DNA from: Verrucomicrobiota bacterium
Lineage (GTDB): Bacteria; Verrucomicrobiota; Kiritimatiellia; CAIQIC01; JAGNIJ01
DNA: 64,000 bases
Assembly: GCA_036821485.1 (NCBI GenBank)
Contig: DAISJM010000001.1
Location: 140,313 to 204,312 of the forward strand
Direction: 5' to 3'
Under the pieces are notes generated by a model. The model saw nothing but the letters and a program-made list of their open reading frames with translations, searched no databases and was not told the DNA's origin. Shown here in pieces: positions 5,172-63,690 of this stretch. Made by a program: the position numbers and the translations under genes. How positions within the stretch are numbered: position 1 is the stretch's first letter; each line of letters begins with the position of its first letter.

Positions 5172-5221
5172 TTTTCCAATCCTTGGAAAAACCCGTTCGG
5201 AATTTTCCAACCCTTGGAAAA
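5172..5221. repeat. TTTTCCAA-N3-TTGGAAAA palindrome doublet, 31-bp period
   Basis: Units at 5172-5190 and 5203-5221 with a 12-bp spacer. Confidence 0.9.
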
Positions 5222-5376
5222 AGACGTTGGAAGATTTTCCGGCGGGGGCTGCCGCCGGACGCAGGAACCGCTGCTACAACTCCACCTCCTCAATTCGCGC
5301 GTGCCCTGCGAAGCGCCGCGCGAAGAAGGGTCCATTCGTGTTAATTCGTGGTCGACTTCCTGCAGCGTCGTTCCGT

Positions 5377-5467
5377 TGTCATCTGGTTCTGGGGTCAGAC
5401 CTGTACGGTGTGCTGCCCAAATCCGAGGACGAGATTCTTCTGCCGCAGGAGCGGCATCAGAATGACA
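5377..5467. repeat. TGTCAT...ATGACA-bounded intergenic element
   Basis: Terminal inverted TGTCAT/ATGACA; right part GAGATTCTTC...CAGAATGACA resembles GAGATCCCTC...GGGATGACA at 27384-27430. Confidence 0.5.
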
Positions 5468-5570
5468 GCTTTCGGCGCGTTTCGTTGCTATCGCTCCGCC
5501 TCCGATCCGCGGTATCAGCGACATCCGCGGTTAAATGTCAGAAGCGGACATATTTGGATCGGAGTCTAAC

Positions 5571-5682
5571 CACTAATTTCCACTAAGCTGCACTAAGGGG
5601 GCGGAGTTAGTGTGACTTTAGTGACCCTTAGTGGTTAAGAATCTTCGGCCCTTTCGGCCTTCGACGAGCAAAGGCCCTACAG
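5571..5682. repeat. Composite intergenic repeat, copy B (inverted CACTAA x3 / TTAGTG x3 arrays plus REP hairpin)
   Basis: CACTAA at 5571, 5581, 5591; TTAGTG at 5607, 5618, 5628; 5602-5682 matches 1490-1567. Confidence 0.8.
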
Positions 5683-5737
5683 GGAACTGAAGCAGGAGGT
5701 CGCGAGGGCCCACTGGTTACCGATCACTGACTACCGG

Positions 5738-6262
5738 TCACTTCAGCTCTTCGGCCTTCGGCCCTTTTCGGAACACATTGCGGAAGAAGAGTGCGGTGTC
5801 CACGCCGACCACCTTGGGTGCGCCGCGCTGGAGGGCACGATCCTTTTCGATCTCCGCTTTCAGGAAGTCCTGCACGAGGATCTTGATGGCGCTGATGAAG
5901 CCGACGCACAGGGTCCACTGATCCGCGGCGATCATCTTGAGCGTCAGCATATCGTCCGCGATGGATTCCGGGGTGTCGTTCTTCGCGTGGCCGTGCGGGT
6001 AGAATTCGGTGGCCAGCCAGCCGGCGACGTTGAAAGCGTGGTCGAGTGTGCCGCGCTCAATACCCAGCTTCGGCAGCGCCTGCTGCGCGATGCGTTCGTG
6101 GTCGGATACGCTCGTGCTGAGGAGTTCGCGAACGGCGAGCATGAACGCGGGCAGCTTGGCCGAGCCGAGGCTCAGCATGGCGGCCAGGTCCCCTTTGACG
6201 GCATCCAGCTTCAAGGAATCCTCCTTGAACGCTTCGATATTCTTGAACAATTTCGATTTCAT
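5738..6262 (-). CDS. Hypothetical alpha-helical protein, possibly 3'-truncated
   Basis: 174-aa ORF with an RBS-like GGGAG and a clear upstream promoter; last codons run into repeat-like DNA; no recognisable family. Confidence 0.55.
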   Translation of the reverse strand: MKSKLFKNIEAFKEDSLKLDAVKGDLAAMLSLGSAKLPAFMLAVRELLSTSVSDHERIAQQALPKLGIERGTLDHAFNVAGWLATEFYPHGHAKNDTPESIADDMLTLKMIAADQWTLCVGFISAIKILVQDFLKAEIEKDRALQRGAPKVVGVDTALFFRNVFRKGPKAEELK

Positions 6263-6295
6263 AACTCACTCCCGCTACGAATTAATAACACTAGT

Positions 6296-6323
6296 AGTAT
6301 ACTAGTATGCATAGTATTTGCAA
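6296..6323 (-). promoter_or_regulatory. Sigma70-like promoter TTGCAA-16-TATACT with overlapping ATACTA direct repeats and ACTAGTA-N3-TACTAGT palindrome
   Basis: Read directly on the minus strand upstream of 6262; AT-rich patch. Confidence 0.55.
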
Positions 6324-6485
6324 GTTGCTTGTCTTACTGTGGTTAAACAAGCCACATATGGTGCGCAAGTGGCTGTGGCGAGGGGAGTTAGGGATGGTCC
6401 CGAGCTCCGCGTCTACGCGGAAGCAGACGGCGACGCTTAAGCGCCGCCAAGGCTTCCGGCTGAAGCCGGGACTCTGGCTGGATTC

Positions 6486-7913
6486 CTACAGTCCCGTCTC
6501 GAATCGGAGCGTCTCGCCCTTCTTGATTTCCACTCCCTCGCCGGCGGGCAGGGGTTCGTCCATGCCTTTGACCGTTACCATGACGTCATAGGTGCCGGGC
6601 GGGACGATGAACTGGCGCCATAGCGGTTCCTGGTTGTCGAATCCGCGGCGCACAGAGAGCAGCGGCGTGGTGTTGCCGGAAGGAATCAGGTCCCACCCCT
6701 GCACGCTGGTCTCGGCTGGTTTGACCAGCACGATGCCGGAGTCCAGCGTGACATAGGCCTCCTTGCCCGCAGCCACGTCGATCTTCCCGGCCACCTTGGT
6801 GGGCGAGGGGCTGCGGTAGTAGAGGAACGAGACATCATAGGTGCCGGCCGGAAGGGCCTTGGGTTTGAAGAGGTAGTAGTCGTTGCCGTTCGGTTCGACC
6901 TTCAGCACCTCGCGTCCGGTGGCGCTCTCGGAGATGATGATGGCGCTGACACTCAGGTCGTTCAACTCCTCTGCCATGTTGAAGACGAGATCGCCGAGAA
7001 GGACTTCGGCGACTTCGCCCTTTGCGACGGTGAAATCGGTGAGCGCGACTTCTGTCGGGGGCCTGTAGTTCGGGTTGGCGAAGAGAAGCGTGAGCGAATA
7101 GTCGCCGGACATCAGCGGATGCGTCGAGTCTGCGCCGGGCAGTTCGGCTTCCTTCACCACCTTGCCGTCGGACTTGCGGGTGATGCGGAATCCGGACAGG
7201 CTCTTCAGCGCGCTTTCCGGCATGGCGATGCGCAGTTTGCCGAGACCGGAGACCTTCTGCACGGTGGAGCTCTTCGCCTTCTCGACCTTCTGCTCGATTT
7301 CCTTGCGAACGGTTTCGAATGCCGCGAGCAGGGCCGCCGGGTCGGCGGCATCGAAGTACTGCCCGCCGCCGGCTTCGGCGATGCAGGAGAGCTGGACCTT
7401 GTCCTCATCCGTCACGTCGAAGCCGACCACGTGCATGATGAAGTTGACGCCGGCGGTCTTCAGTGCCTTGACGGTGGCGCATGGATCGCCGCCGCACGTC
7501 TCCTTGCCGTCGCTCACGAGCACGATGGTGGTCTCGGCAGTGCGCCCTTTGAGCAGGTCCGCGACCTGGGTGACGGCGGCGGCAATGGGGGTCATGCCGG
7601 TGGGTTGGATGGCCTTCACGCGCGCGAGGAGTCCGTCGCGGTCTGCGCTGCCGGGGGGTATAAGCACTTCGATATCGGTGCAATCCTTGGCGCGGCGGTG
7701 GCCGTAGGCGGCGAGACCGATGCGAACTTCCGGGGGAACTTCGGGGACGACCTTTTCCATGACGGACTTGGCCGCATCCATCTTGGTCTGAGCTCCCGCC
7801 GGGCCCTGCATGCTGCCGGACCCGTCGAGTATGAATACGGCCTCCGGGAAGCCCGCCGCCTGAACGCATGTGGGAATAAGAATGGATATGATCAGCTTGT
7901 GCAGGGTCCTCAT
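6486..7913 (-). CDS. Secreted VWA (MIDAS) domain protein with C-terminal beta-sandwich repeats
   Basis: GGAGGAGG RBS before ATG 7913; signal peptide; ILDGSGSM MIDAS, TGMTPIA, VSDGKETC; repeated PxGTYDV segments. Confidence 0.85.
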   Translation of the reverse strand: MRTLHKLIISILIPTCVQAAGFPEAVFILDGSGSMQGPAGAQTKMDAAKSVMEKVVPEVPPEVRIGLAAYGHRRAKDCTDIEVLIPPGSADRDGLLARVKAIQPTGMTPIAAAVTQVADLLKGRTAETTIVLVSDGKETCGGDPCATVKALKTAGVNFIMHVVGFDVTDEDKVQLSCIAEAGGGQYFDAADPAALLAAFETVRKEIEQKVEKAKSSTVQKVSGLGKLRIAMPESALKSLSGFRITRKSDGKVVKEAELPGADSTHPLMSGDYSLTLLFANPNYRPPTEVALTDFTVAKGEVAEVLLGDLVFNMAEELNDLSVSAIIISESATGREVLKVEPNGNDYYLFKPKALPAGTYDVSFLYYRSPSPTKVAGKIDVAAGKEAYVTLDSGIVLVKPAETSVQGWDLIPSGNTTPLLSVRRGFDNQEPLWRQFIVPPGTYDVMVTVKGMDEPLPAGEGVEIKKGETLRFETGL

Positions 7914-8029
7914 CTCGTCCGTCCTCCTCCCATGTCCAATACGCAGCGGACGCGGATGCGTTAAGGGTTGCGAACCGATGAGCGCGCAGGCCCCAAACAT
8001 CGGCGGCCGGTTCTGGTATGGTATCCGCC

Positions 8030-9193: not shown

Positions 9194-9217
9194 ATTGCGG
9201 AATGATTTGTCCTAACC

Positions 9218-9249
9218 CGGACATTGCACGAGAATTCGTGCAATGTCCG
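9218..9249. terminator. 14-bp stem hairpin downstream of the MFS gene (terminator or repeat)
   Basis: CGGACATTGCACGA-gaat-TCGTGCAATGTCCG; no U-tract. Confidence 0.4.
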
Positions 9250-9391
9250 CCCTGCGGGCTTCGACGCGCCGCGCCAGAGCGCGGATTGCTCAGGATAGGC
9301 CTTTCGGCGCGTCGAAGGATTAGCCTTGAGCAAGCTGCGGAGCAGCGCGCCGAAACCTTGGCCGCAGAAGTTTCTGCGGCCAAGGCGCTTA

Positions 9392-9420: not shown

Positions 9421-9460
9421 AAACGGGCTAAAGCGGGAGCAACCTACCAAGGAGCAAGAC

Positions 9461-21016: not shown

Positions 21017-21646
21017 CTATTCCGTGGAGATGCGGTAATGGTAGGGGCCCGCTCCGGTGGCCGTCTCGTCGGTGTAAACATTGATCGTCGGCGTGGCGGT
21101 GATGTTGGTCTTCAGGTTGGAGAAGTTCGTGGTGAGAAGGCCGCTGGATCTTTGCAGGCGGTACTTTTTCCCGGCGACGCTGGACCACGAGATCACGGAG
21201 TTCGACGCTTGAAACCTGAGACTTGAAACTTGGAACACTGAGGCCGCGTTAGTCGGCTGCGTGCCTGCGAGCAGTTCGTCCGTATTCCACATTCCGTCGC
21301 CGTCGGTGTCCGGGTCCGTCGGGTCCGTCTGATCCTGGTAGTGTTTCAGGTTGCTGATGGTGTCCTGGTTGAAATCGCCGGCGGCGGTGTTGGTGAGACC
21401 GTTGAACCAAACCAACTCCCACGCGTCGGGGAGGGTGTCGCCCTCGGTGTCCGCTTCTCCCTGGATGCCGATGGCGACGGACTGCGTGATGTTGCCGAAC
21501 GAGTCGTAGGCGTAGTTCACGCGTTGCGTGCTCGAGAGGCGCGACTCCGACAGTCGCCCATCGCTGTCGAAGACGAACGATTGAGAGCGCGCTGTCACGG
21601 TCAGCGCGGCCCATGCCATGCACCACACTATGATTCGTCTTGTCAT
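21017..21646 (-). CDS. Secreted single-YD-repeat protein with DxDGDG repeats and ...HYR C-terminal domain (RHS partner)
   Basis: ATG overlaps the RHS TGA (TGATG); signal peptide; FDSDGRL...YAYDSFGNIT; DTDGDGMWNTDELLAGTQP. Confidence 0.75.
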   Translation of the reverse strand: MTRRIIVWCMAWAALTVTARSQSFVFDSDGRLSESRLSSTQRVNYAYDSFGNITQSVAIGIQGEADTEGDTLPDAWELVWFNGLTNTAAGDFNQDTISNLKHYQDQTDPTDPDTDGDGMWNTDELLAGTQPTNAASVFQVSSLRFQASNSVISWSSVAGKKYRLQRSSGLLTTNFSNLKTNITATPTINVYTDETATGAGPYHYRISTE

Positions 21647-24600
21647 CAGAATGAGCTCGGCATCGAATTCCAGACGGCCTGTTCCTCCGGCGTCATCGGA
21701 GTCTCCGATACGACGCACCGCCATTGTGCTTCCAGCGCGCGCTGCCTTTCTCCGTTTTCCCAGGCAGAGCGCTCATACTGTTCAAGCAACTTCGCCGCGA
21801 GCGCCTCCAGTTCGCTGGCTTCGACGGGACCGATGATGCCGGCCTCGGCCAGACCCTTTCCAAATCCGCTCAACTCCGATCCTTGAAGGATGTCGTCGCT
21901 GATGGATGTTGCCATTTCCACCGAGCCTTCGAGGTCAAAGGTGTTGTCGTCCTCCGTGCCTTCCGGGTCTATCCGGTCCACCGGATTGCCGCGCACGTAG
22001 CGGTATACATTCACATCCGGCAGCAGGCCCAGCGGATCGCGCTGGAGGAATCGGCCGGCGGTCGCGTCGTAACAGCGGGCCTTCATGAAGTAGAGCCCGC
22101 CGCCTTCGTCCGTCACGCCGTACCGGCCGATGAAGGTGAACGGGTTGTTCATCCGGCTGTAACCGCCCGCCGGCTGGCCGTAGGCGTCGTACCGATAGAG
22201 CGCCGACAGTTTCCCTTGCTCGTCGGTCATCGCGATGGTGCTGCCGTTCTTGTCGGCGTGGTAGAAGTGAGTGCCCCTGCCGGCGAACCACGCCGCGACC
22301 AGCGCCCGGCCGCGGTAGAAGTAGAGCGCGGTGACGCGGGAGGCTCCGTCATCTTCGCAGATCAGTCGATCGGCGTGGTCGTAGTACAGCCGCCGTGCGG
22401 AGCCCCCGGTTGTCACGCTCGCGCGGCGCCCGAGCGCGTCGTAGGTCCACGCGCTGTTCGTTCCCCCGCGAGTGATGGAGGTCAGCCGGTTTGCGGTGTC
22501 GTAGGCGGCGGTAAAGTTGGTTCCGGCGGTCTGATTGCCGTCCGCATCGTAGGTGCAGGCGGATGTGTTGCGTTGGGTGGCCTCGTTGGCCACGTCGAAC
22601 CGCGCGCGGTTCGTGGCGGGGGACTGCAGGGGCGACCACGGGATCAACCCACCTTGCTTCACGATGTTCGTCGTTTGACCGGCGGCATCGCGGTAGTAGG
22701 CAAGCTGGATGAGGTTGCTGGTGCCGGCGCGGTGGAGGATTCCGGTGGGATCGTTGGCGGCGTCCCAGCCCCAGTAGGTATCGCCGCCGTTCGAGCGCTG
22801 TTCGCGGAGCGGATTGCCTTCCGCGTCATACGTGAAGCGAATCCAGTTCGCACCCCACGCCATGTTGGTGACGCGGTCACGGCTGTCGCAGGCGTAGGAA
22901 ACGACGGTGCCGTCGGGATAGGTCATGGTGGTGACGTTGCCCTCCGGGTCGCGCGCGAACGACAGCGTCCTGCCGCCGGGATAGCGCGCGGCAATCACGT
23001 CGCCGCGAGCGTCGTAGGTGTACGAGAATGAACCGGCATCGTTGGAGAAATTCGTCAGCCGCAACGCGGCGTCGTAGGCGAAGACGCTGGCTGCCCCGTT
23101 TTCCACGCGGCCGATCAGCAACCCGTCCGCGTCGTAGGTGAAGCCTGTCCGCTGGAAGCGGGCGTTGAACGTGTTGGTGAGTCGGCCCAGCGGATCGTAG
23201 TAGCAGCTCGTGAAATGCCACAGCGGATCGTTGATCGACTGCACGCGATTCATGCAGTCGAAGCTGAAGCTGTAGAAGTCGCTGGAGAACGCGCTGGTGC
23301 TGACCGACGAGATGTTGTCGTTCGCATCGTAGGTGTAGTACATGGAGCGGCCGAGCGCGGTGATGTGGTTGGTCATCCGGCCCGCGGCGTCGTACCGGTA
23401 CGTGTTGGTTCGCGCGAGCGGATCGACGATGCGCTTGAGCTTGTTGAAGTTGTTGTAGGCGTAGGTCGTGCGACGCCCCATGGGGTCGATCGACGCCGTC
23501 GGCCACAGCATGGCGTTGCGCTCGACCGTGGTGGTCCGACTGTTCCCGTCGATCCGCTGCGATTCCGCGCAGCAGTCATACACGATCCGTTCGGTTGTGC
23601 CGTCGGGCCGGATGGTTCGCGTGCGCCGCCGCAGCGCATCGTATTCGAAGCGGGTGACGAAGCCGCGCCGGTTGGTGATGGCGACGACATCGAAGCCCGC
23701 GGCGTCATAACCGAAGGTCGCGGAGTACCCGAGCGGATCGGTCATGCGGGTGGGTTTGCCGAGCGAGTTGAACGCGAAGGTGGTGCGTTCGCCGGCGGCG
23801 TTGACGGCGGCCGTGACGAGGCCGAGCGCGTTGTACTGCCAGCGTTGTTCGCGGCCGCCGAACGAGACGAGATTGGTGAGGTTGCCGCGGCTGTCGTATC
23901 CGAATCGCATGGCCTGTCCAAGCGCGTTGGTTGCCGCCGCGATGCGGCCCTTGGCGTCGTAGCCGCGGGTTTCGACCGTGCCGTCGTAGTTCACGCGCCG
24001 CAGCAGGCGCCCGTGTGGATCGTAGCTCATGCGCATCGTGCAGCCGCCGGGGTTGGTGACGGTCGTCGCCCAGCCGTTGCTGTACGAGGTGAGCGTATAG
24101 CGGTCCGTGGGGTCCTTGACCTGCGTGGTCATTCCGTTGCTGCTGTAGTAGATCCAGAATCCGCCGGTCGGATCGTCACGCCAGACCGCGCGGTTGTCCA
24201 TGGGCTGGCTCATCGCGTAGTAGTAATTGGTGCGGCCGAGCGCGTCCGCGACCGTTGAAATCCGCGTGTACGTTCCTGCCACGCTGCCGGTCTCCCAGGT
24301 GAAGGTCCACGTCCGGCCCTCGGTGGACATGTTCGTCATGTAGTGCTGGGCGTTGTAACGAAAGAGGGTTGTGTTGCCGGCCGCATCGCGGCTTTCGACA
24401 AGATTCTGGTTCGCGTCGTAACGGTACGCGCAGGCCGCGCCGCCCGGCACGATCACGTTGGTGCAGCGGCCCTGTGCGTCGTACTGGAATCGGGTTGAGC
24501 GGCCGACGGCGTCGGTGATGTTGGTCAGGCGCGTGCCGTTGTAGCCGAGCGTCACCCGGTTCGAATTGCCGTCCTCGATGCGCACCAGCGGAATCCAGGC

Positions 24601-25830
24601 ATCGCGCACATCGGCGCTTTCGTAATACCACGTGTCGCCGGTCCGGGGATCGAACCACTCGTAGACCCAGACGCCGCGGGCCGTGTCGTTCGTGCGCCGG
24701 AAGCGGCGCGTCTCGCCGGGCGGCACGACATAGTCGCCGTCCCATGTGACGAGCGGAGTGACGGAATCCGACGAGCGCGCGCTCGTGTTGGTCACGTAGT
24801 ACACGGGGATTTCTCCGCCCGCCTGGTTCGTGTCGATGCTGCCCGGCGGAACGCCGTAGTACATCGCCTGGCCGGAGCCGCCGTAGCGGGAGACGGTCAG
24901 GTACGAGCCGGAGAGATGGGACTCGGCGGAGAACGTCCAGCCGCGTCCGAACATGCCCGTCGCCGCGGGGTTCGCGTTCCATGTGCGGGTGAAGGTGAGG
25001 TCGGGGCCCGGGCTGGAGTAGGCGTAGTCGGTGTCTTCGACGAGGAGGTTCAGTGTGCACGTGTTGATGCGGAAGCCGGGCAGGCCCATCGGCACGCACC
25101 CGCCGCAGCCCTCGGGTTTGTGGAACTTCACCGGCGGCTCGAAGCCGGTGTATTCCGGCAGGCCCATGAGCCATTCCCAGTAGCCGATGGCGAGCGCGTC
25201 TTTCGGGATGATGTAGATGTACACGAATTTCATGTCGCGGATGTCGGGCCAGTAGTTCGTCTGCGAATCAAGGGTGGCCGAGAGGATTTCAATCTGGCTG
25301 TACGTCCGGTTGGGCACAAAGGGATCGCGGTGTGTGAGATTGAGCACGGCGGGCGGCGACCCCTCCGCGTGCCAGACCAGGTGCGAGCGCCAGAGGCAGT
25401 GCGTGTAGGGAATGTCGATCCGGCCCTGCCGCTCAAGCGGGATCGAGTTGGAGAGCAGCTGGGTATTGGCCACGCTCATCGAAACGCCGTAGCTCATGTC
25501 CGGCTTCAGCGGCGCGGCGTAGGTGATCTGCGTTATCTCCGGTGTGTCGGACCGGCTGACCAGTTGAATTTGCGCGTCGGGAATTTCGGCGATCGACCAC
25601 TGCACCGTGATGAGTCCGCCGGTGGAGGTCATGCCCGGGGCGATTGCGGGCACAAGGAGGACCAGCACGGCGACGATTTTCCAAGCGTTGGAAAAATGGC
25701 GGCGCGATTTTCCAAGGGTTGGAAAAACTGAACGGGATTTTTCCAAGGGTTGGAAAAACCGTCCCGCACACCACCTCGTCACGGCTTTGTACACGTTGAC
25801 GCCCATGGTGAGAACAAGCGCCCGGCCCAT
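21646..25830 (-). CDS. RHS/YD-repeat protein with N-terminal signal peptide and RHS-associated core; short acidic C-terminal tip
   Basis: AAGGAGG upstream; DUF6531-like TFTRTWN...MFGRGW; more than 25 YDxxG repeats; core RFLQRDPLG...NPVDRIDPEG; start codon uncertain (25830 or 25806). Confidence 0.88.
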   Translation of the reverse strand: MGRALVLTMGVNVYKAVTRWCAGRFFQPLEKSRSVFPTLGKSRRHFSNAWKIVAVLVLLVPAIAPGMTSTGGLITVQWSIAEIPDAQIQLVSRSDTPEITQITYAAPLKPDMSYGVSMSVANTQLLSNSIPLERQGRIDIPYTHCLWRSHLVWHAEGSPPAVLNLTHRDPFVPNRTYSQIEILSATLDSQTNYWPDIRDMKFVYIYIIPKDALAIGYWEWLMGLPEYTGFEPPVKFHKPEGCGGCVPMGLPGFRINTCTLNLLVEDTDYAYSSPGPDLTFTRTWNANPAATGMFGRGWTFSAESHLSGSYLTVSRYGGSGQAMYYGVPPGSIDTNQAGGEIPVYYVTNTSARSSDSVTPLVTWDGDYVVPPGETRRFRRTNDTARGVWVYEWFDPRTGDTWYYESADVRDAWIPLVRIEDGNSNRVTLGYNGTRLTNITDAVGRSTRFQYDAQGRCTNVIVPGGAACAYRYDANQNLVESRDAAGNTTLFRYNAQHYMTNMSTEGRTWTFTWETGSVAGTYTRISTVADALGRTNYYYAMSQPMDNRAVWRDDPTGGFWIYYSSNGMTTQVKDPTDRYTLTSYSNGWATTVTNPGGCTMRMSYDPHGRLLRRVNYDGTVETRGYDAKGRIAAATNALGQAMRFGYDSRGNLTNLVSFGGREQRWQYNALGLVTAAVNAAGERTTFAFNSLGKPTRMTDPLGYSATFGYDAAGFDVVAITNRRGFVTRFEYDALRRRTRTIRPDGTTERIVYDCCAESQRIDGNSRTTTVERNAMLWPTASIDPMGRRTTYAYNNFNKLKRIVDPLARTNTYRYDAAGRMTNHITALGRSMYYTYDANDNISSVSTSAFSSDFYSFSFDCMNRVQSINDPLWHFTSCYYDPLGRLTNTFNARFQRTGFTYDADGLLIGRVENGAASVFAYDAALRLTNFSNDAGSFSYTYDARGDVIAARYPGGRTLSFARDPEGNVTTMTYPDGTVVSYACDSRDRVTNMAWGANWIRFTYDAEGNPLREQRSNGGDTYWGWDAANDPTGILHRAGTSNLIQLAYYRDAAGQTTNIVKQGGLIPWSPLQSPATNRARFDVANEATQRNTSACTYDADGNQTAGTNFTAAYDTANRLTSITRGGTNSAWTYDALGRRASVTTGGSARRLYYDHADRLICEDDGASRVTALYFYRGRALVAAWFAGRGTHFYHADKNGSTIAMTDEQGKLSALYRYDAYGQPAGGYSRMNNPFTFIGRYGVTDEGGGLYFMKARCYDATAGRFLQRDPLGLLPDVNVYRYVRGNPVDRIDPEGTEDDNTFDLEGSVEMATSISDDILQGSELSGFGKGLAEAGIIGPVEASELEALAAKLLEQYERSAWENGERQRALEAQWRCVVSETPMTPEEQAVWNSMPSSF
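25677..25757. repeat. TTTTCCAA-N3-TTGGAAAA palindrome triplet, 31-bp period, inside the RHS ORF
   Basis: Units at 25677, 25708 and 25739 with 12-bp spacers. Confidence 0.92.
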
Positions 25831-25935
25831 TCCGGAAGCATGCCTCCTTGGGGCGTATTCTAGGAGATCGGGCGGAATCTGTCACGGTCATGCCGCGCTG
25901 GATTTTGGGGCGTTCCGGCCCTAGAGTGGGGCGCC

Positions 25936-26970
25936 ATGTCGATTCTGCTCAAGAACCAGACGGCGGAGGAATTGCACGCGGCGCTGGCGTTGGCCGGCAT
26001 GACCCCGCGTGCTGCCCGCATCATCCAGACCGCGGCGGTTCGCCGCAACGAATGGCCTGCGCCGCAGACCGGAATGTCCGCCGACTTGTTGGCGCGGGTG
26101 CAGGCGGCTGCGACGATTCCGAACCTGGAGGTGGCCGGCAAAACGGTTTCGCCGACGGATGGCTTCACGAAGTATCTCTTTCGCGGTGCCGACGGCGAGA
26201 CGTTTGAGTCCGTACGCATTCCGATTCTCCACCGTCCGGAAGACCGGAAGCTCATCATCTGCGTCAGCTCGCAGGTCGGTTGCGCACTCGGTTGTGCGTT
26301 TTGTTTCACCGGGCGTATGGGTTTCAAGCGTAACCTCGCCGCGTGGGAAATTGTCGATCAGGTGCTGAAGATCCGCGATGACTCCGACCTGCCCGTGCGC
26401 GGTGTCGTCTTCATGGGCATGGGCGAGCCGATGCTGAATTACGAAGCCGTGATGACGGCGGCATCGATCTTGTCCGAGCCGTGCGGTATGGCCATCGATT
26501 CCAAGTCCATCACGATTTCGACTGCGGGCATTGTCCCCGGCATTCGCCGATTCACCGCCGAGCGGCGGCGGTTCCAGCTCATTGTCTCGCTCACGACGGC
26601 GAACGCCGCGCGGCGTGCCGAACTGCTGCCGGTGGAGAAAGCGCACCCGACACCGGACTTGATCGCGGCCCTGCGCGAGTATCACGCCGCCACACGGCGG
26701 CGCGTGACGCTGGCGTGGATCATGATGTCCGGCATCAACACCGGCGAGCGGGATGCGGAGGAACTGGCGGAACTCACCAGGGATCTGCCGGTGAAAATCG
26801 ACCTCATCGACGTCAACGATCCGACCGGCCAATTCAAACCGCCGACGCGCGAGGAACTGAGCCGTTTCCGTGACGTGTTGCGGAAGCACGTCGGCGCGCC
26901 GGTGCTTCGCCGCTACAGCGGCGGGGCCGATATCTGGGCGGCCTGCGGAATGCTCGCAGGCAAGACCTGA
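25936..26970 (+). CDS. rlmN: RlmN/Cfr-family radical SAM RNA methyltransferase
   Basis: CVSSQVGCALGCAFC, FMGMGEP and C-terminal AACGML cysteine; divergent SLTTA in place of SLHA. Confidence 0.75.
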   Translation: MSILLKNQTAEELHAALALAGMTPRAARIIQTAAVRRNEWPAPQTGMSADLLARVQAAATIPNLEVAGKTVSPTDGFTKYLFRGADGETFESVRIPILHRPEDRKLIICVSSQVGCALGCAFCFTGRMGFKRNLAAWEIVDQVLKIRDDSDLPVRGVVFMGMGEPMLNYEAVMTAASILSEPCGMAIDSKSITISTAGIVPGIRRFTAERRRFQLIVSLTTANAARRAELLPVEKAHPTPDLIAALREYHAATRRRVTLAWIMMSGINTGERDAEELAELTRDLPVKIDLIDVNDPTGQFKPPTREELSRFRDVLRKHVGAPVLRRYSGGADIWAACGMLAGKT

Positions 26971-27474: not shown

Positions 27475-28005
27475 CTACAAACCTTCGAACAACGATAACT
27501 GCGTTGGTTGGGCGGGCGTGGCGGGGGTCTCGTAGCCGTCATCCGTCGGGAGGTCCGCAGCCTGCCGTGCTGCGACCGCCAGTTCATCACAGCGGGAGTT
27601 TTCCTTGTTGTCCGTATGTCCCCGCACCCAGATGAAGTTCGCATCGTGCAGCGCGCAAAGATCCAGCAGGATTTCCCAGAGGTCGGGGTTCTTTGCCGGA
27701 TCCTTTCCCTTGTTGCGCGTCCAGCCATCCCGCCGCCATTGCTGCGCGTAGCCGCCGTTGATCATGTTCACAACATACTGCGCGTCGCTGTAGACGGTCA
27801 CCTTGCCATGGGGCAGTTCCAGTTCGCGCAGGGCGCGGATGACGGAGAATAGTTCCATGCGGTTGTTGGTGGTCTTGAGGAACCCGCCGGAAAGCTCTTG
27901 CCGCTGCCCGTCGGCGATCAGGACGACGCCATAGCCGCCGGGGCCGGGATTGGCCTGGCACGCGCCGTCCGTGTAGATCGTGATATCGCCGGGAGACTTG
28001 AACAT
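27475..28005 (-). CDS. rnhA: Ribonuclease HI
   Basis: IYTDGACQANPGPGGYG, TNNRMEL, YSDAQYV, KNPDLW and WVRGH..N.EN..CDELA motifs. Confidence 0.95.
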   Translation of the reverse strand: MFKSPGDITIYTDGACQANPGPGGYGVVLIADGQRQELSGGFLKTTNNRMELFSVIRALRELELPHGKVTVYSDAQYVVNMINGGYAQQWRRDGWTRNKGKDPAKNPDLWEILLDLCALHDANFIWVRGHTDNKENSRCDELAVAARQAADLPTDDGYETPATPAQPTQLSLFEGL

Positions 28006-28038
28006 CGCGGGAGTATTGCAGAGTTGGCGGCGGGATCA

Positions 28039-28057
28039 ATTTCCAAGCATCGGAAAA
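28039..28057. repeat. Degenerate solo copy of the TTTTCCAA-N3-TTGGAAAA palindrome
   Basis: ATTTCCAA-GCA-TCGGAAAA in the divergent rnhA/ABC-F promoter region (two mismatches). Confidence 0.5.
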
Positions 28058-28105: not shown

Positions 28106-30004
28106 ATGCTAACGATTTCTGGAATGACCAAGGCTTTTGGCGAGCGCGCCCTCTTCGAGGACGTATCGCTGCAGGTCGGCGACACCGACCGGATCGGGCT
28201 TGTAGGCCCGAACGGCGCGGGCAAGTCCACGCTCTTCTCGCTCATTCTTGGGCGGGACACGGCGGATGCGGGCGAGGTGTTGATGGATCGCAATCTCTCG
28301 ATCGGGCATCTCCCGCAGGAGACCGCGCCGGTCAACGACGAGACGGTGCTGCAGTTGGCGACGGCGATCACGCCGGAGGTGGTGGAGCTTCAGCGGCGGA
28401 TGAAGGAATTCGATGCGGGGCATGACACCGAGTCGCATGATTTTCACGAGGTACAGGCGCGGTTCGACGAGGTGGGGGGCTACCAGCTTGAGCCGCGGGC
28501 CAAGACGATCCTGCGCGGGCTGGCGTTTCGGGAGAAGGATTTCGACCGGCCGCTTCGCGCGATGAGCGGCGGCTGGATCATGCGCGCGCATCTCGCGCGG
28601 CTGCTCGTTCAGCAGCCTGACCTGCTGATGCTCGACGAGCCGACGAACCACCTCGACCTTGAGGCGCTGCAATGGTTCCAGGGTTACCTCAAGACATACC
28701 CCGGTTCGATTCTGCTGATCTCGCACGATCGCGAGTTTCTGAACCAGCTCGTCGGCAGCATCGTGGAGATTCGCCAGAGCCGGCTGATTCGCTACCGCGG
28801 CAACTACGACGAATATCTTCTCCAGCGCGCGGCACAGGAGGAGCAGCAGCTCGCGGCCTACAAGGCGCAGCAGAAGAAGATCCAGCAGCTCCAGGAGTTC
28901 GCCGACCGCTTCCGGGCGAAGAATACGAAGGCTGCGCAGGCGCAATCGAAGCTCAAGCAGATCGAGCGGATGGACAAGATCGAGGCGCCGGAGCGGGACA
29001 ACCGGGCGATCAGGTTCCGGTTCCCGCAGCCGGTGCGCAGCGGGCACCGCGTCATCACGCTGAAGGACATTCATCACTCGTACGGCGAGAATGTGGTCTA
29101 TCGCGGCATGCATTTCGAGGCCGAGCGTGGCCAGCGGCTCGTGCTGGTCGGTCCAAACGGCGCGGGCAAGTCCACGCTGCTGAAGCTGCTGGCGGGCGTG
29201 CTGCCGGTCCAGTCCGGCACGCGCGAACTGGGCCTGCACGTGAAGGCAGGCTACTATGCGCAGCACCGCGTCGAAATGCTCCAGCCGGGGCGCACGGTGC
29301 TGGCCGAAGCGTTGGACACGCCGCGGCAGTTGTCGGAAGAATTCGCGCGCACGGTGCTCGGCTCATTCCTGTTCACCGGCGACGACGTGTTCAAGCAGGT
29401 GTCGGTGCTCAGCGGCGGCGAGAAGAGCCGGCTGGCGCTGGTGAAGCTGCTGCTTGATCCGCCGAATCTCCTGCTGATGGACGAGCCGACCACGCACCTG
29501 GACATGACCAGCATCGACGCGCTGATTCGCGCGTTGGAGCCGTTCGAGGGCACGCTCATCTTCATCAGCCACGACGTCTACTTCATTCGCAAGCTGGCCC
29601 GGCAGGTGTTGCACGTCGATGCCGGGCGGCTCACGCCCTATCACGGCGATTACCAGTACTACCTCGACAAGGCGGCGGTGCAGGCGGCGTGCGCAGCGGG
29701 GCTGCCCAAGCCTGCCAAGCCGCCGGAAGAGAAGTCGAAGAAGCGGCTCGAGGCTGAAGCGCGCCAAGCGCGCTCGCGCGAGCGGCGCGGGTTGGAGAAG
29801 GAAGTCGACAAACTCGAAGCGGAAATCGCCCGGCTGGAACTTAAGCAGAAGGAGTTCGCCACCGAGCTCGAGAATCCCGCGACCTATGACCAACCCGGCC
29901 GTGCGGTCGCCGTGAACCGCGAGCTTCAATACGTTACCGAGGATCTCGAACGCGCGACCAAGGAGTGGGAAGCCGCCGCGTCGAAGCTGGAAGCGCTGCA
30001 GTAG
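28106..30004 (+). CDS. ABC-F family ribosome-associated ATPase (YheS/YdiF-like)
   Basis: Two GPNGAGKST Walker A motifs, LDEPTNHLD/MDEPTTHLD, PtIM linker and C-terminal coiled coil; no TM segments. Confidence 0.9.
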   Translation: MLTISGMTKAFGERALFEDVSLQVGDTDRIGLVGPNGAGKSTLFSLILGRDTADAGEVLMDRNLSIGHLPQETAPVNDETVLQLATAITPEVVELQRRMKEFDAGHDTESHDFHEVQARFDEVGGYQLEPRAKTILRGLAFREKDFDRPLRAMSGGWIMRAHLARLLVQQPDLLMLDEPTNHLDLEALQWFQGYLKTYPGSILLISHDREFLNQLVGSIVEIRQSRLIRYRGNYDEYLLQRAAQEEQQLAAYKAQQKKIQQLQEFADRFRAKNTKAAQAQSKLKQIERMDKIEAPERDNRAIRFRFPQPVRSGHRVITLKDIHHSYGENVVYRGMHFEAERGQRLVLVGPNGAGKSTLLKLLAGVLPVQSGTRELGLHVKAGYYAQHRVEMLQPGRTVLAEALDTPRQLSEEFARTVLGSFLFTGDDVFKQVSVLSGGEKSRLALVKLLLDPPNLLLMDEPTTHLDMTSIDALIRALEPFEGTLIFISHDVYFIRKLARQVLHVDAGRLTPYHGDYQYYLDKAAVQAACAAGLPKPAKPPEEKSKKRLEAEARQARSRERRGLEKEVDKLEAEIARLELKQKEFATELENPATYDQPGRAVAVNRELQYVTEDLERATKEWEAAASKLEALQ

Positions 30005-30043
30005 CCTTTCGCCTGACCACCTATCCTGCACGAGAACGGAATC

Positions 30044-30082
30044 TTGACATGCATGCATGACTCGTGTAGTCATGCATACATG
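30044..30082 (+). promoter_or_regulatory. vapBC promoter/operator; probably leaderless
   Basis: TTGACA at 30044-30049; inverted repeat CATGcATGCATGAC-N7-GTCATGCATaCATG ending on the vapB ATG; no SD. Confidence 0.65.
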
Positions 30083-30319
30083 AAGACGATTACTCTGACG
30101 GACGAGGCCTATGAGCGGTTGCTCTCCTGGAAGGGTGCCTCCAAGGAATCGTTTTCCAAGGTGGTGCTGTCGGTCGTTCCTAAGAAAGGAACCTTGGGGC
30201 AGATGTTGGAAGACGTGAAATCCCTGCCGGCGTTGTCGTCGAGACAGGTCAGGGTGATGGAGGAGGCCGCAACCTGGGGCAGGAAGCCTGAGACGCTGAA
30301 GGACAAATGGACCTCCTAG
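30080..30319 (+). CDS. vapB: VapB-type antitoxin (archaeal-style VAPB_antitox/DUF217-like)
   Basis: MKTITLTDEAYERL...ESFSKVV; overlaps the PIN toxin gene. Confidence 0.75.
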   Translation: MKTITLTDEAYERLLSWKGASKESFSKVVLSVVPKKGTLGQMLEDVKSLPALSSRQVRVMEEAATWGRKPETLKDKWTS

Positions 30320-30714
30320 CTGACACCACGTTCCTGATCGATCTATGGCGGGAGCAACGCGCCCCGGGTTCCGCCACGAGTTTCGCCAAGCGGAGCGCGG
30401 ACCTTGCGTTGGGATTGCCCTGGGTTGTTGTGGGGGAATTCCTCAGTGGAGGAGTGCTTGCCGGGCAGGATGGAGAACTCCTGGACGCTTTTGTGCAGCG
30501 CTATTCCATCATTCATTCCACGGATCGTATCGTGAACAGCTATGCGCAGATCTTCGCCTCTGTTCGAAAGGAGAGGATTTCCATGGGGCCCAACGATCTC
30601 TGGATTGCGGCATGTGCGGATGCTCTTGATCTTCCCTTGGTCACGCGGAACGCGGCGGACTTTGAGGTGGTATCATCCATTCGTGTGTTGAGTTACAAGG
30701 ACGGGGGTCTGTGA
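30307..30714 (+). CDS. vapC: PIN-domain VapC toxin
   Basis: LADTTFLID, VVGEF, GPNDLWIAA and LVTRNAADF acidic PIN motifs. Confidence 0.9.
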   Translation: MDLLADTTFLIDLWREQRAPGSATSFAKRSADLALGLPWVVVGEFLSGGVLAGQDGELLDAFVQRYSIIHSTDRIVNSYAQIFASVRKERISMGPNDLWIAACADALDLPLVTRNAADFEVVSSIRVLSYKDGGL

Positions 30715-41631: not shown

Positions 41632-41681
41632 TTTTCCAATGCTTGGAAAAACGGGCCGCACTTTTTCCAACCCTTGGAAAA
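41632..41681. repeat. TTTTCCAA-N3-TTGGAAAA palindrome doublet, 31-bp period
   Basis: Units at 41632 and 41663 with a 12-bp spacer, about 57 bp upstream of the E1 alpha start. Confidence 0.9.
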
Positions 41682-41738
41682 CTCCCGATTTCATTTCGTC
41701 TTTACCCTCTTTGGTGCGCTGGCTAGACTTGGGGGGCT

Positions 41739-42719
41739 GTGAATAGCGATACAAAAAGCCTGCCGAAGGGCGCATGGGTTGATCTCGTGCGCTGCATGCA
41801 GCTTTCCCGACTGATCGAGGATCGGCTGGTGCGGCTTTACCACCAGGGCCGTATCTTCGGCGGCGTCTACACCGGCATTGGGCAGGAAGCGGTGGGCGCA
41901 GCTACGGCGATGGCTTCCGGCAAGAATGATCTTCTTTCCCCGCTGATTCGCGACATGACCGTTCACCTCGCGCGCGGGCAGACCGCGCTCAACATTTTCC
42001 GTCAGTATCTCGGCCGTGCGACCGGACCGACGCGTGGTCGCGACGGCAACGTGCACCACGGCTCTGCTGCGCAGGGCGTTTATGCGATGATTTCCCATCT
42101 CGGCGCGATGCTGCCGGTGCTGGTGGGCGGCGTCATGGCGCGCCGGCGGCAGGGGCGCGATACCATCGGCCTTGGCTATATCGGTGATGGCGCGACGAGC
42201 ACGGGCGATTTTCACGAGTCGGTCAATTTCGCCGCCGTGTTCGACGTCCCCGTGATTTTCGTCATCGAGAACAACAAGTACGCCTACTCGACGCCCAACA
42301 GCACGCAGTTCCGCTGCGCGCGCCTGGCCGACCGCGCGGCGGGTTACGGGATCGAGGGCATCACGACGGACGGCAATGACGCCATCGCCCTGCATCTTCT
42401 CGCGCGCGAGTTGATCGCATCGATCCGTGCCAAGCCGCGGCCGATTTTGCTGGAGTGCGATACGCTTCGCATGCGCGGCCATGGCGAGCATGACGACAGC
42501 TCCTACGTGCCGAAGGAATTGAAGGAACACTACGCGGCCCGCGATCCGCTCCGGCTCATTCGTGATCGGCTGGTGAAGGACGGCGTGGCGAAAGCTGCGG
42601 AGTGGGATGTTTTGGAACGGGACTGTCTGGCCGTGGTGGATCGCGCCTATCACGAGGCGCTCGCCGACCCGCGGCCCGATCCATCCACTCTCACGGAGGG
42701 CGTCTATGCCGATGCGTGA
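41739..42719 (+). CDS. pdhA: 2-oxoacid (pyruvate/branched-chain) dehydrogenase E1 alpha
   Basis: GQEAV; TPP motif GDGATSTGDFHE...ENN; RMRGHGEHDD. Confidence 0.85.
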   Translation: MNSDTKSLPKGAWVDLVRCMQLSRLIEDRLVRLYHQGRIFGGVYTGIGQEAVGAATAMASGKNDLLSPLIRDMTVHLARGQTALNIFRQYLGRATGPTRGRDGNVHHGSAAQGVYAMISHLGAMLPVLVGGVMARRRQGRDTIGLGYIGDGATSTGDFHESVNFAAVFDVPVIFVIENNKYAYSTPNSTQFRCARLADRAAGYGIEGITTDGNDAIALHLLARELIASIRAKPRPILLECDTLRMRGHGEHDDSSYVPKELKEHYAARDPLRLIRDRLVKDGVAKAAEWDVLERDCLAVVDRAYHEALADPRPDPSTLTEGVYADA

Positions 42720-58918: not shown

Positions 58919-58948
58919 AGTCGTCCAATATTCCAACGAGGGGTTGCC

Positions 58949-60043: not shown

Positions 60044-60052
60044 CTGCGATTA

Positions 60053-61453: not shown

Positions 61454-61510
61454 GAGAGTCCTCCTGTTGAAAACCCGGATGATAGTGTGGCGATCGCGGA
61501 ACGGCAAGGT

Positions 61511-62203: not shown

Positions 62204-62258
62204 GATGGCTGTTCCACGGTGTCACAAAAGACGGCCGCGGACAAGCGTGCCGCTTGCG

Positions 62259-62543
62259 TCAGTCACGATAAACTTCGTCGTGCGAACCGATGTCCAGCAG
62301 CACGATCTCCCGGGCTTTGACCCGGAGTATCAGGACGATACGGTGACTGTACGTCAAGCTGGCGGCGAGCTTTCCGTGATGCTTGCCTTTTAATGCATGC
62401 AATCGCAGCCGGGGCGCATGAGGGTCGTCCTCGAGTTGCTTGAGTGCTGCGTGGAGTTCGCCTGCCAGCTCCGGGTTCCGGCGGATGAACTTTTTTGCTG
62501 TTCGCAGGAACGATTCGGTCCAGACGAGTTGGTGGGTGGGCAT
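62259..62543 (-). CDS. RelE/ParE-superfamily (YafQ/HigB-like) mRNA interferase toxin
   Basis: LVWTESFLRTAKK, DDPH.P.LRLHALKG, LLDIGSHDEVY motifs. Confidence 0.85.
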   Translation of the reverse strand: MPTHQLVWTESFLRTAKKFIRRNPELAGELHAALKQLEDDPHAPRLRLHALKGKHHGKLAASLTYSHRIVLILRVKAREIVLLDIGSHDEVYRD

Positions 62544-62547
62544 CGCG

Positions 62548-62802
62548 TCACGCACCTTTTCGAATGGCGTGCATCAACTGCGCGGCGGACCCGCGCTGGA
62601 TGCGGCCTGCCTTCAGATCGGCATCCGATGCCGCCAGCCGCGCTTCGGCAAGGTCGTTCAGCATTTGCTGATAGTCGGATTCCGACATGACAACGTACTG
62701 GGCCCGACTCTCCTTGATGACGTGGACGGGCCCGTTCTCCACAGGCTTGTCCACGGCCGAGATGCCGCGCCGCTTGATTTCCCCAGCCGATATGATGTTC
62801 AT
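62548..62802 (-). CDS. Phd/YefM-family antitoxin
   Basis: ISAGEIKRRG...GPVHVI......YVVMSESDY; directly upstream of the toxin. Confidence 0.8.
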   Translation of the reverse strand: MNIISAGEIKRRGISAVDKPVENGPVHVIKESRAQYVVMSESDYQQMLNDLAEARLAASDADLKAGRIQRGSAAQLMHAIRKGA

Positions 62803-62817
62803 CTGGATTCCTTTGTC

Positions 62818-62854
62818 ACAGTACTAATATAAGTACCGTATAAGGTACTGTCAA
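62818..62854 (-). promoter_or_regulatory. TA promoter TTGACA-17-TATATT with ACAGTAC...GTACTGT operator
   Basis: Near-consensus hexamers; GTAC cores at 62821, 62833 and 62845 (12-bp period). Confidence 0.75.
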
Positions 62855-62870
62855 CAGTGCTGGGTGGGCT

Positions 62871-63602
62871 TCAGGTCTCAAAGTCGCAGATCAGGGGCAG
62901 GTGATCTGAGAAAAGGACGCGCGGCATCTCGAAGTGGGTTACGCGGATGTCCGGGCTATGGAGGATGAAGTCGATTTCGCGCTTCGGCGAACGGCTGGGA
63001 TGCGTGGGCAAATCATTCACATTTGCGCTGCGGAGGCCGGAGGCGGCAAGGAAGAGCTCGATCTCGTCATCGCCCCACAGGGGATTGAAGTCGCCGACCA
63101 CGATGCAGGGCTTCTTGACCTCCTTGACCATCTTGTAGAGGTCGAATAGCTGCCCGTGGCGGTGCCGGAACTTGACCGAAAGGTGCACGAGGAAAATCGT
63201 GAGGTCGTCCAGCTCGAGTTCGATGACGAGCCGCTTGATGCCTTTGCGGAAGTAGTGGAACTTCTGCGTCTTGATCTCCTCGCTCGTCAGGAATGCGTTG
63301 ACCTGCTTGCTGACGATGGGCAGCCGCCGGATCATCGAGGAGCTGTCGTATTTCGATTCGTAAATGTGGTAATGGCCTAGGGCCTTGGCGATGACGGAAG
63401 CCTGGTTGAGTTTGCGCGCGCGGAACGAGCCGCTATCCACCTCGATCAGACCGACGATGTCCGGCTTGTAGGACTTGATGAACGCCGTGATGTTCTCAAG
63501 ATTCTCACCGGTGTGCTTGAGGTACCCGCCGAACGGAACAGGAAGGTGGAAGCGCGCGCCGGCCCCGGTCCCGTAACGCATGTTGTACGCAAGCAGTCTC
63601 AT
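62871..63602 (-). CDS. Endonuclease/exonuclease/phosphatase (EEP) family protein
   Basis: LAYNM, DIVGLIEVD, VHLS, GDFN, IDFI and SDHLPL motifs. Confidence 0.88.
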   Translation of the reverse strand: MRLLAYNMRYGTGAGARFHLPVPFGGYLKHTGENLENITAFIKSYKPDIVGLIEVDSGSFRARKLNQASVIAKALGHYHIYESKYDSSSMIRRLPIVSKQVNAFLTSEEIKTQKFHYFRKGIKRLVIELELDDLTIFLVHLSVKFRHRHGQLFDLYKMVKEVKKPCIVVGDFNPLWGDDEIELFLAASGLRSANVNDLPTHPSRSPKREIDFILHSPDIRVTHFEMPRVLFSDHLPLICDFET

Positions 63603-63640
63603 CGCCCAGCAGACTACCCCTTGCGGGCAGAATCATCAAA

Positions 63641-63690
63641 TTTTCCAATGATTGGAAAATGCGGGGCCTGTTTTTCCAATGATTGGAAAA
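63641..63690. repeat. TTTTCCAA-N3-TTGGAAAA palindrome doublet, 31-bp period
   Basis: Units at 63641 and 63672 (both TGA centre) with a 12-bp spacer, between mfd and the EEP gene. Confidence 0.9.

Follow-up and report, generated by a model that had tools for sequence, protein, structure and literature searches.

Short palindromic repeats in helically phased arrays were found in a 64,000-nt stretch of a Verrucomicrobiota genome (GenBank assembly GCA_036821485.1, contig DAISJM010000001.1, positions 140,313 to 204,312; hereafter, the window) and, with the same core, in related genomes. The symmetry of the unit, its strict geometry, the spacers of whole-turn length and free sequence, and a core that is constant across the class Kiritimatiellia and over a 30-point range of G+C content argue for recognition of the duplex by a conserved dimer. 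All-or-none conservation, genome dialects, shared spacers, tolerated insertions (including in essential genes) and rapid turnover argue for the behaviour of repeats such as the repetitive extragenic palindromic (REP) sequences, the bacterial interspersed mosaic elements (BIMEs) and the Rickettsia palindromic elements (RPEs). Combined, the two sets of facts point to a REP-like family whose core would be the cognate site of a putative protein. We give an about even chance to this reading, a short dispersed palindromic repeat family with a REP/BIME-like distribution and a core that would serve as the duplex site of a putative class-wide homodimeric protein. Full-text searches for the motif, for Kiritimatiellia repeats and for palindromes with nucleoid proteins returned no description of the element, and within the literature searched the family looks previously undescribed.

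The unit in the window is TTTTCCAA-N3-TTGGAAAA (19 bp), and an exact pattern search found TTTTCCAANNNTTGGAAAA at nine sites (5172, 5203, 25677, 25708, 25739, 41632, 41663, 63641 and 63672). The nine perfect units are grouped in four arrays to which no strand is assigned: array 1 (5172..5221; two units, centres TCC and CCC), array 2 (25677..25757; three units, centres GCG, GGG and GGG), array 3 (41632..41681; two units, centres TGC and CCC) and array 4 (63641..63690; two units, centre TGA in both). A degenerate solo unit, ATTTCCAAGCATCGGAAAA, also without strand, lies at 28039..28057 and mismatches at 2 of 16 positions. The distance between neighbouring units is 31 bp in five of five cases (once in arrays 1, 3 and 4, twice in array 2) and the centre is 3 bp long in all nine units; the five 12-nt spacers and the centres are unrelated to one another. 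All of these units and distances, and the solo, had been given in a preliminary description of the window and were reproduced by the pattern searches; the centres and spacers quoted there read exactly so in the sequence.

By chance no perfect unit is expected (0.00 in 100 dinucleotide-preserving shuffles of the window). With up to three mismatches tolerated, ten sites were found, nine with no mismatch, none with one, one with two and none with three; conservation of the unit in the window is all-or-none. Only two of the eight stem pairs are G-C, in a window of ~62% G+C, and the stem is followed by AAAA and not by a U-tract. The window sequence was matched on contig CAZGBH010000002.1 of assembly GCA_964523715.1; because JGI, ENA and Logan assemblies made independently contain identical sequence, an assembly artefact can be ruled out as the origin of the arrays. 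A tRNA search of the window found none, and Rfam returned no family over the whole window at the gathering threshold; a permissive Rfam search of 5000-5800 gave sub-threshold noise only, its CRISPR-DR match at 5484-5522 being below the gathering cut-off and away from the arrays. A known RNA family was rejected, as no Rfam match rose above threshold.

Related genomes, one per species, were surveyed with the pattern TTCCAA-N3-TTGGAA, a gap of 4-34 bp and TTCCAA-N3-TTGGAA again, which permits periods of 19-49 bp. The survey yielded at least 119 stretches from at least 46 assemblies, and the statistics on related loci given here and below rest on the matches listed. Across genomes the core is TTCCAA-NSN-TTGGAA, a palindrome of 15-19 bp with the same 12 bases in at least 46 assemblies, which excludes confinement to the window and bears out the lineage-wide distribution that had been proposed. 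The titles of the listed records name Kiritimatiellia, Kiritimatiellae, Kiritimatiellales, Tichowtungia, Pontiella, Lentisphaerae, Verrucomicrobia or 'uncultured bacterium'; three further records are labelled Spartobacteria, Prevotellaceae and plain 'bacterium', the last two being atypical. The G+C content of the array-bearing stretches listed ranges from 0.44 to 0.73.

Among the matches listed, the distances between perfect units fall into three classes, 21-22 bp (21, n = 4; 22, n = 11; 15 in total), 30-33 bp (30, n = 4; 31, n = 90; 32, n = 72; 33, n = 4; 170 in total) and 42-44 bp (42, n = 7; 43, n = 2; 44, n = 1; 10 in total), with no distance between the classes in the range of 19-49 bp. 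The three classes are two, three and four turns of ~10.5 bp, that is, whole helical turns; rarer longer gaps of 53, 62-66, 73-74, 82 and 95 bp were also listed. The preferred period differs by genome and is 31, 32 or 42 bp. The 'invariant 31 bp' of the preliminary description thus holds for this genome and does not extend to its relatives, which use 31 or 32 bp by genome with minor classes at 21-22 and 42-44 bp; the peak at 31 bp (90 cases) is present in the spacing histogram, but 32 bp is nearly as common (72 cases). The view that fixed length with free sequence reflects a geometric constraint is borne out, as the listed relatives show only whole-turn spacings within 19-49 bp. Spacers of the main class have A/T-rich ends and otherwise no consensus. 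Arrays contain two to seven units, with six-unit arrays at three loci (L018, L029 and L083) in which a tblastx comparison was swamped by high-GC noise. In the window a multi-unit array occurs about every 16 kb, and the unselected parts of the related loci have about one every 17.4 kb; by extrapolation from this density (~1 per 16-17 kb), a genome would carry a few hundred arrays, in line with the hundreds per genome put forward earlier.

The symmetry of the unit extends into its centre. In the related loci, 392 units have a centre of 3 bp and none has any other length tried between 0 and 7. Of 485 units, 475 have G or C as the middle base, the first and third bases are complementary to each other in 49.5% where chance predicts 25%, and the commonest centres are TSA and GSC; given this complementarity and the G/C middle, the palindrome crosses loop positions that a hairpin would leave free. 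The orientation of the centre relative to transcription is unbiased (TCA 39, TGA 43), and single mismatches comprise 9 that are compatible with G-U pairing on the sense strand, 10 on the antisense strand and 12 transversions. Since neither the centres nor the G-U-compatible mismatches show a strand bias, an RNA hairpin was rejected. When oriented by their centres, the units have no asymmetric flank consensus, and a directional repeat was rejected because these flanks are symmetric; they consist of T/A runs, or of S followed by a T-tract. The centres of the half-sites lie 9-11 bp apart. An intrinsic (Rho-independent) terminator was also rejected, given the weak stem, the A's that follow it and the presence of arrays in divergent gaps.

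The repeat-like side of the family is seen in its insertions, dialects and turnover. Judged from sequence comparisons, at least four arrays are in-frame insertions in genuine genes (murD, murF, nadE and a kinase gene). At one locus (L006), a two-unit array forms a 22-residue in-frame insertion in MurF relative to the ortholog at another locus (L042), and the MurD encoded there is longer by ~47 residues, which include a three-unit array and are flanked by blocks alignable to solved MurD structures; the 27-nt spacer of the murD array recurs in the murF array with an internal expansion. In the glutamine-dependent NAD synthetase NadE of L061, a two-unit array lies in a linker insertion of ~38 residues, and at L065 an array separates a kinase domain from an FGE-sulfatase domain. 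Genomes have their own dialects: the centre is TSA in 76 of 77 units of one genome and mostly GSC in another, and the dialects also cover flank, spacer and period. Equal-length spacers are most alike when they share an array (identity 0.58), less so when they share a genome (0.51) and least when they come from different genomes (0.41), and near-identical spacers occur at separate loci of one genome.

Array positions appear to be poorly conserved between species, as judged from orthologous loci. At the loci orthologous to the xth gene next to array 4, one (L127) keeps two degenerate units 31 bp apart and the other (L126) has none. No units were found at four operons orthologous to the E1alpha operon next to array 3 (71-75% identity), one of them from a genome with arrays elsewhere. 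The murE/murF junction carries arrays in two genomes, three units with 43-bp periods in one versus two units 32 bp apart in the other, a comparison that is biased because both loci were picked for carrying arrays. Six near-identical contigs of the same species have identical arrays and are uninformative on positional conservation. No flanking target-site duplication was seen.

In the favoured reading of a REP-like family with a protein-bound core, half-sites about one helical turn apart would let a dimer contact successive major grooves. Units two, three or four turns apart (21-22, 31-32 and 42-43 bp) would place dimers on one face of the helix and in touch with one another, and touching dimers could oligomerise cooperatively or wrap DNA that is intrinsically flanked by A/T-tracts; the length of a spacer would matter while its sequence stays free. 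Arrays may arise and grow by tandem duplication of a unit plus its spacer and by ectopic copying between identical units, would persist wherever they are tolerated (any intergenic gap, the n-region of signal peptides, inter-domain linkers) and would turn over quickly between species. The putative protein could act in nucleoid architecture, in the management of supercoils or as an enzyme that propagates the repeat. A more specific version, which we hold only tentatively, is that the arrays are the footprint of a class-wide sequence-specific nucleoid system, in which the putative dimer nucleates at hundreds of sites per genome and oligomerises on or wraps the DNA in helical register, making each array an element of chromosome architecture or of supercoil domains whose sites are renewed by copying and not by positional conservation. 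The preliminary description had set an array of sites for a putative dimer-of-dimers or chromosome-organising protein against a mobile repeat. Elements of both are supported and they are not exclusive, the protein-site array by symmetry, the lack of strand bias and the phasing, and the mobile repeat by in-frame insertions, dialects, shared spacers and poor positional conservation.

Several observations weigh against the favoured reading. Ordinary regulator sites are seldom conserved as these units are, near-perfectly and all-or-none at 16 positions, a pattern that copying or drive would explain no less well than selection for binding. Of eight units with two mutations, four are mirror-compensatory (TTCCAG...CTGGAA), and as single strands the two-unit arrays fold into stable long hairpins (-17 to -23 kcal/mol, z -2.6 to -5.6); because of the compensatory doubles and the folding of doublets, recognition of a single-strand hairpin by an HUH-type enzyme is conceivable. 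Some 42-43-bp spacers hold recurrent GC-rich mini-palindromes, so the spacing classes could partly reflect linker modules and not pure geometry. Neither 850 kb of related loci nor ~72 kb of the source contig yielded a binding-protein candidate linked to the arrays. Gene contexts in the related loci come from a simple and crude gene caller of our own.

With this gene caller, the array-bearing gaps in related loci were tandem in 118 cases, divergent in 34 and convergent in 25, a split about as expected if gaps are hit in proportion to their abundance. There are 39 array ends within 25 nt of a stop codon, many of them at 1-8 nt. Convergent cases confirmed by Pfam are UxaE/FAD_oxidored (L060), isocitrate/isopropylmalate dehydrogenase (Iso_dh)/PATR (L088) and, in a wider gap, SBF/GH57 (L058); the gaps at L060 and L088 are tight, and the array at L088 is flanked by canonical hairpin-plus-T-tract terminators. 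Apart from the first two A's, 153 flanks on the start side and 112 on the stop side share no motif at a fixed distance, and a promoter element was rejected because the position-specific composition of the flanks is featureless past these. In ~20 cases an open reading frame (ORF) runs from the last unit straight into a signal-peptide-like hydrophobic stretch, e.g., FSNDWK-TGCALLAVLLCAVGTAQA, with the unit coding for the charged n-region; the RHS-repeat gene at array 2 of the window is one such case.

The genes next to the arrays have little in common. When 659 predicted locus proteins were clustered all against all, no family extended to more than five loci, and the recurrent families are large paralogous or housekeeping ones (ABC ATPases, sulfatases, RsbU-type phosphatases, HIT and RidA). 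The 101 array-adjacent proteins match 122 Pfam families, each found in at most two proteins, and include PurM, MreC, EF-Ts, shikimate kinase and the delta' subunit of DNA polymerase III. No transposase, HUH enzyme or recurrent DNA-binding protein was found among these 101 proteins or in ~72 kb of annotated source contig. The co-occurring gene family that the preliminary description had proposed to look for did not emerge from the 101 adjacent or the 659 clustered proteins. A regulon was rejected, since Pfam on the window neighbours, the recurrent clusters and the 101 adjacent proteins revealed no common function.

The five sites of the window illustrate this variety, and Pfam gave no common function for the genes around them. 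Array 1 lies in a 706-bp gene-free gap between a CN_hydrolase gene (4180-5031, plus strand) and a convergent ORF of 174 aa (5738-6262, minus strand). The same gap holds, at 5565-5637, three CACTAA direct repeats followed by three TTAGTG (CCACTAAtttCCACTAAgctgCACTAAgggggcggagTTAGTGtgactTTAGTGacccTTAGTGG), which form a long composite inverted repeat with no Rfam match. Array 2 is flanked by two divergent genes, the RHS-repeat gene on the minus strand and a radical-SAM gene on the plus strand (25936-26970). The public gene call for the RHS-repeat protein (21646-25830, minus strand, 1394 aa) starts upstream of array 2, so that the three units are translated as part of the RHS N-terminus, a start that is itself doubtful; in the RHS frame the last unit encodes FSNAWK and is directly followed by a signal-peptide-like hydrophobic stretch. 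A consensus scan placed a promoter-like GTGACA-17-TAGAAT upstream of array 2 on the minus strand (25857..25885), and if this is a real promoter, array 2 would be transcribed within the RHS 5' region. The solo lies in a 100-bp divergent gap between an RNase H gene (27475-28005, minus strand) and an ABC-F ATPase gene (28106-30004, plus strand). Array 3 is 57 nt upstream of the GTG start at 41739 (plus strand) of an E1alpha-E1beta-E2 2-oxoacid dehydrogenase operon and 270 nt from a divergent radical-SAM/SPASM gene; the closest homologues of this E1alpha are proteins from metagenome-assembled genomes (MAGs) whose source names are Kiritimatiellae, Verrucomicrobia or Lentisphaerota. Array 4 lies 10 nt past the mfd stop codon (63701, minus strand) and abuts the -35 hexamer of a promoter-like site for an Exo_endo_phos (xth) gene (62871-63602, minus strand).

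This last site is one of three sigma-70-like promoters placed by eye in the window, TTGATG-17-TAGTCT at 63611..63639 (minus strand, outside the repeat, 8 nt from -10 to ATG), TTGATC-16-AATACT at 28012-28039 (minus strand) and TTTACC-17-TAGACT at 41701-41729 (plus strand); the first is kept in both orthologous xth loci. The -35 hexamers lie 0-19 nt downstream of the solo and of arrays 3 and 4, and the three promoters end 6-10 nt before start codons, a distance that suggests leaderless or near-leaderless mRNAs in the source organism. The relation between array and promoter is not fixed, because the promoter-like sites are downstream of the solo and of arrays 3 and 4 but upstream of array 2. Terminator-like hairpins are not enriched in the window (19 vs 14.5 expected). 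Toxin-antitoxin pairs (VapB/PIN; an antitoxin with a YafQ-like toxin) lie close to two arrays (window 30017-30714 and 62548-63000; L120 3833-4376), a closeness that is probably a coincidence.

Five other explanations were considered, all weaker than the favoured reading. The repeat might be a selfish single-stranded DNA hairpin of the REP type or of its paired form (REPIN), copied as unit or doublet by a dedicated HUH enzyme resembling the REP-associated tyrosine transposase (RAYT) or by another nuclease or transposase, with the phasing secondary. Such copying would fit units that are intergenic, high-copy and all-or-none, doublets that fold into long hairpins, the four of eight compensatory double mutants, in-frame gene insertions, dialects with spacers common to several loci, and fast positional turnover. 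We nevertheless consider it unlikely, since the units lack a GTAG/CGTC tag, a Y1 transposase is absent from the 101 adjacent proteins and from the 72 kb around the window, and the core is constant across the class and over G+C contents of 0.44-0.73, while a REP consensus is specific to a species or genus; a hairpin would also leave unexplained both the free spacers of whole turns and the centre that is G/C-only in its middle and often self-complementary. A signal for DNA uptake, or for another form of drive, would similarly let motif-bearing DNA be preferentially taken up or recombined and accumulate where tolerated. All-or-none conservation, the lack of orientation preference and of a linked gene, copies in tolerant coding segments, a lineage-wide core with dialects and fast positional turnover are all compatible with it. 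The density of ~1 per 16-17 kb is, however, 10-20 times below that of uptake sequences, which are asymmetric, 9-12 bp long and common inside genes, while the present copies are mostly extragenic; nothing connects the motif with competence genes, whole-turn-spaced arrays are not a known property of uptake sequences, and a drive signal of this kind seems very improbable to us.

The remaining explanations assign the arrays a role in transcription or at the RNA level. Tightly bound arrays could act as roadblocks or insulators that stop read-through or separate supercoiling domains at the borders of transcription units in both directions, as many arrays start 1-10 nt past a stop codon, no canonical terminator separates the mfd stop from the next promoter, where array 4 lies, tight convergent gaps are filled by arrays, the unit is symmetric and free of strand bias, and terminator-like hairpins are not enriched in the window. 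A strong role as roadblock or terminator is made unlikely by the arrays inside the essential murD, murF and nadE, where, as for array 2 downstream of its promoter-like site, a strong block would be harmful; with canonical terminators on both sides of the L088 array, no depletion of divergent gaps and positions that are not kept between species, we regard roadblocks as improbable. Operators of a global transcription factor, lying upstream of promoters in the manner of Lrp, ArgR or NtrC and governing a regulon (e.g., secretome or polysaccharide use), would agree with the 0-19 nt between the solo, arrays 3 and 4 and the by-eye -35 hexamers, with the secreted proteins encoded by several downstream genes and with the ~three-turn spacing of Lrp sites and NtrC enhancers. 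This role is unlikely because the neighbours are unrelated (Mfd, RNase H, ABC-F, E1 dehydrogenase, PurM, MreC, EF-Ts and sulfatases, with no recurring family) and because some sites are genuinely convergent or intragenic; the distance to promoter elements is not fixed, four orthologous operons have no units and site conservation is far sharper than in usual regulon operators, which leaves it quite improbable. Least probable of all, and hardly credible in our view, are untranslated hairpins at the 5' or 3' end that stabilise mRNA, terminate transcription or control translation. The sites do adjoin stop and start codons and the predicted folds are more stable than those of shuffles, but A's and not a U-tract follow the stem, arrays occur in divergent gaps and between two canonical terminators, there is no Rfam match and whole-turn spacing is meaningless for RNA. 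An RNA role is unlikely above all because strand asymmetry is wholly lacking, in the centres as well as in the G-U-compatible mismatches.

Among known systems, the repeat is closest in distribution to REPs and BIMEs of enterobacteria and pseudomonads, with their RAYTs and REPINs, with which it shares short palindromes in hundreds of copies, mostly extragenic and often just past stop codons, as well as clustered arrays, discrete linker lengths, presence or absence between relatives and doublets that form long hairpins. REPs are high-copy extragenic palindromes of 20-40 bp that are often clustered, and the present repeat agrees with this (19-bp units, 2-7 per array, ~1 array per 16-17 kb). REPs are defined by a GTAG or CGTC tetranucleotide that is conserved at one palindrome end (PMC3733652). 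Here, as the preliminary description had noted, this foot is lacking, being absent from the logo of unit and flanks, and the units are perfectly symmetric and hence free of orientation. The present repeat differs further in a core that is identical class-wide and not specific to a species or genus, in whole-turn spacings with free spacers, in its occurrence in divergent promoter gaps and inside genes, and in the absence of a RAYT gene from the 101 array-adjacent proteins and ~72 kb of the source contig; RAYT genes, of the Y1/HUH kind, typically have REPs on their flanks. RPEs are single elements of 100-150 bp. The in-frame insertion of a palindrome at tolerated positions of proteins, here in murD, murF, the nadE linker and the kinase linker, is common to both; the present units are of 15-19 bp, stand in phased arrays, are mostly intergenic and belong to another lineage. 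The dRS3 repeats of Neisseria (ATTCCC-N8-GGGAAT) and the Neisseria intergenic mosaic elements (NIMEs) likewise have conserved inverted arms, a variable centre and intergenic arrays with intervening segments. NIME spacers are repeat families of 50-150 bp that are not helically phased, and dRS3 is a phage integration site, a use not seen for the present repeat.

In geometry the arrays resemble the sites of Lrp (pap/ilvIH), Fis (rrnB P1), the NtrC enhancer and the ARG boxes of ArgR, which lie two, three or four turns apart (~21, 31-32 and 41-42 bp); palindromic dimer sites of 15-19 bp, A/T-rich flanks and symmetric CA/TG steps are also shared. Those sites are degenerate, fixed to promoters and bound to a regulon, whereas the present ones are near-perfect, independent of promoters, mobile-like and, by extrapolation, present in hundreds per genome. 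The arrays show the sequence features of a cooperative phased array of double-stranded DNA sites, a class defined by how it works and not a sequence family. Clustered regularly interspaced short palindromic repeats (CRISPRs) are similar in having identical palindromic repeats and unique spacers of constant length. CRISPR repeats measure 23-47 bp and their spacers 21-72 bp, in long arrays with cas genes nearby. The 19-bp units and 12-bp spacers are too short for CRISPR, as had been stated before; further differences are the 2-7 units per array, the variable centres within an array and the number of loci, by extrapolation in the hundreds, and no cas family was found by Pfam near the window arrays. 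Miniature inverted-repeat transposable elements (MITEs) have terminal inverted repeats around a body of 50-800 bp, a target-site duplication and a related autonomous transposon. A MITE was rejected, because the unit consists of arms and 3 bp only, the window spacers are unrelated, and there is neither a flanking duplication nor a transposase nearby. The uptake signal sequences and DNA uptake sequences (USS/DUS) occur at ~1 per kb, including in coding regions, and are tied to competence machinery.

If the favoured reading of a protein-bound REP-like repeat is true, each genome of the Kiritimatiellia, an environmentally important and little-studied lineage of polysaccharide degraders within the Planctomycetes-Verrucomicrobia-Chlamydiae (PVC) group, would carry an extrapolated few hundred near-identical, phased protein-docking arrays. 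Class-wide identity together with helical phasing is unusual for dispersed palindromic repeats and makes the binding protein worth finding, and the arrays offer an experimental handle (a 50-bp probe) for finding such a lineage-wide DNA-binding protein. Whether REP-like repeats serve as host architecture, are selfish DNA or combine the two is a question that this family could answer. The repeat explains spurious N-terminal extensions in gene calls, as in the RHS gene, and odd insertions in murD, murF and nadE, and probably accounts for some contig breaks in MAGs; another possible use is as a sequence signature for binning or classifying contigs of the Kiritimatiellia type.

Other repeats and structures were seen near the arrays or their orthologous loci. 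Long perfect or near-perfect G+C-rich palindromes, e.g., ggggtcagagtaccagcttgctagtaagctggtactctgacccc, adjoin arrays at three loci (L004 ~4440-4480, L014 ~5150-5200 and L104 ~4200-4260) and may be a second, unrelated family of repeats or terminators. Upstream of one of the orthologous E1alpha operons (L151 ~1850-2200), two similar tRNA-like segments lie on the reverse strand (…gggattcgaacccatgttac…), with a GIY-YIG gene nearby. Viral contigs gave 16 matches, of which ~10 resemble host-type arrays and the remainder are unrelated, having A/T centres or irregular spacing. One viral contig (IMG/VR 3300018422_000008; L146 7607-7846) carries six copies of GGAGTTCCAAASTTTGGAACTCC at an irregular spacing of 36-60 bp, probably as a phage operator or iteron array distinct from the present repeat. 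The core of this element is related, the palindrome is longer and the copies are not helically phased.

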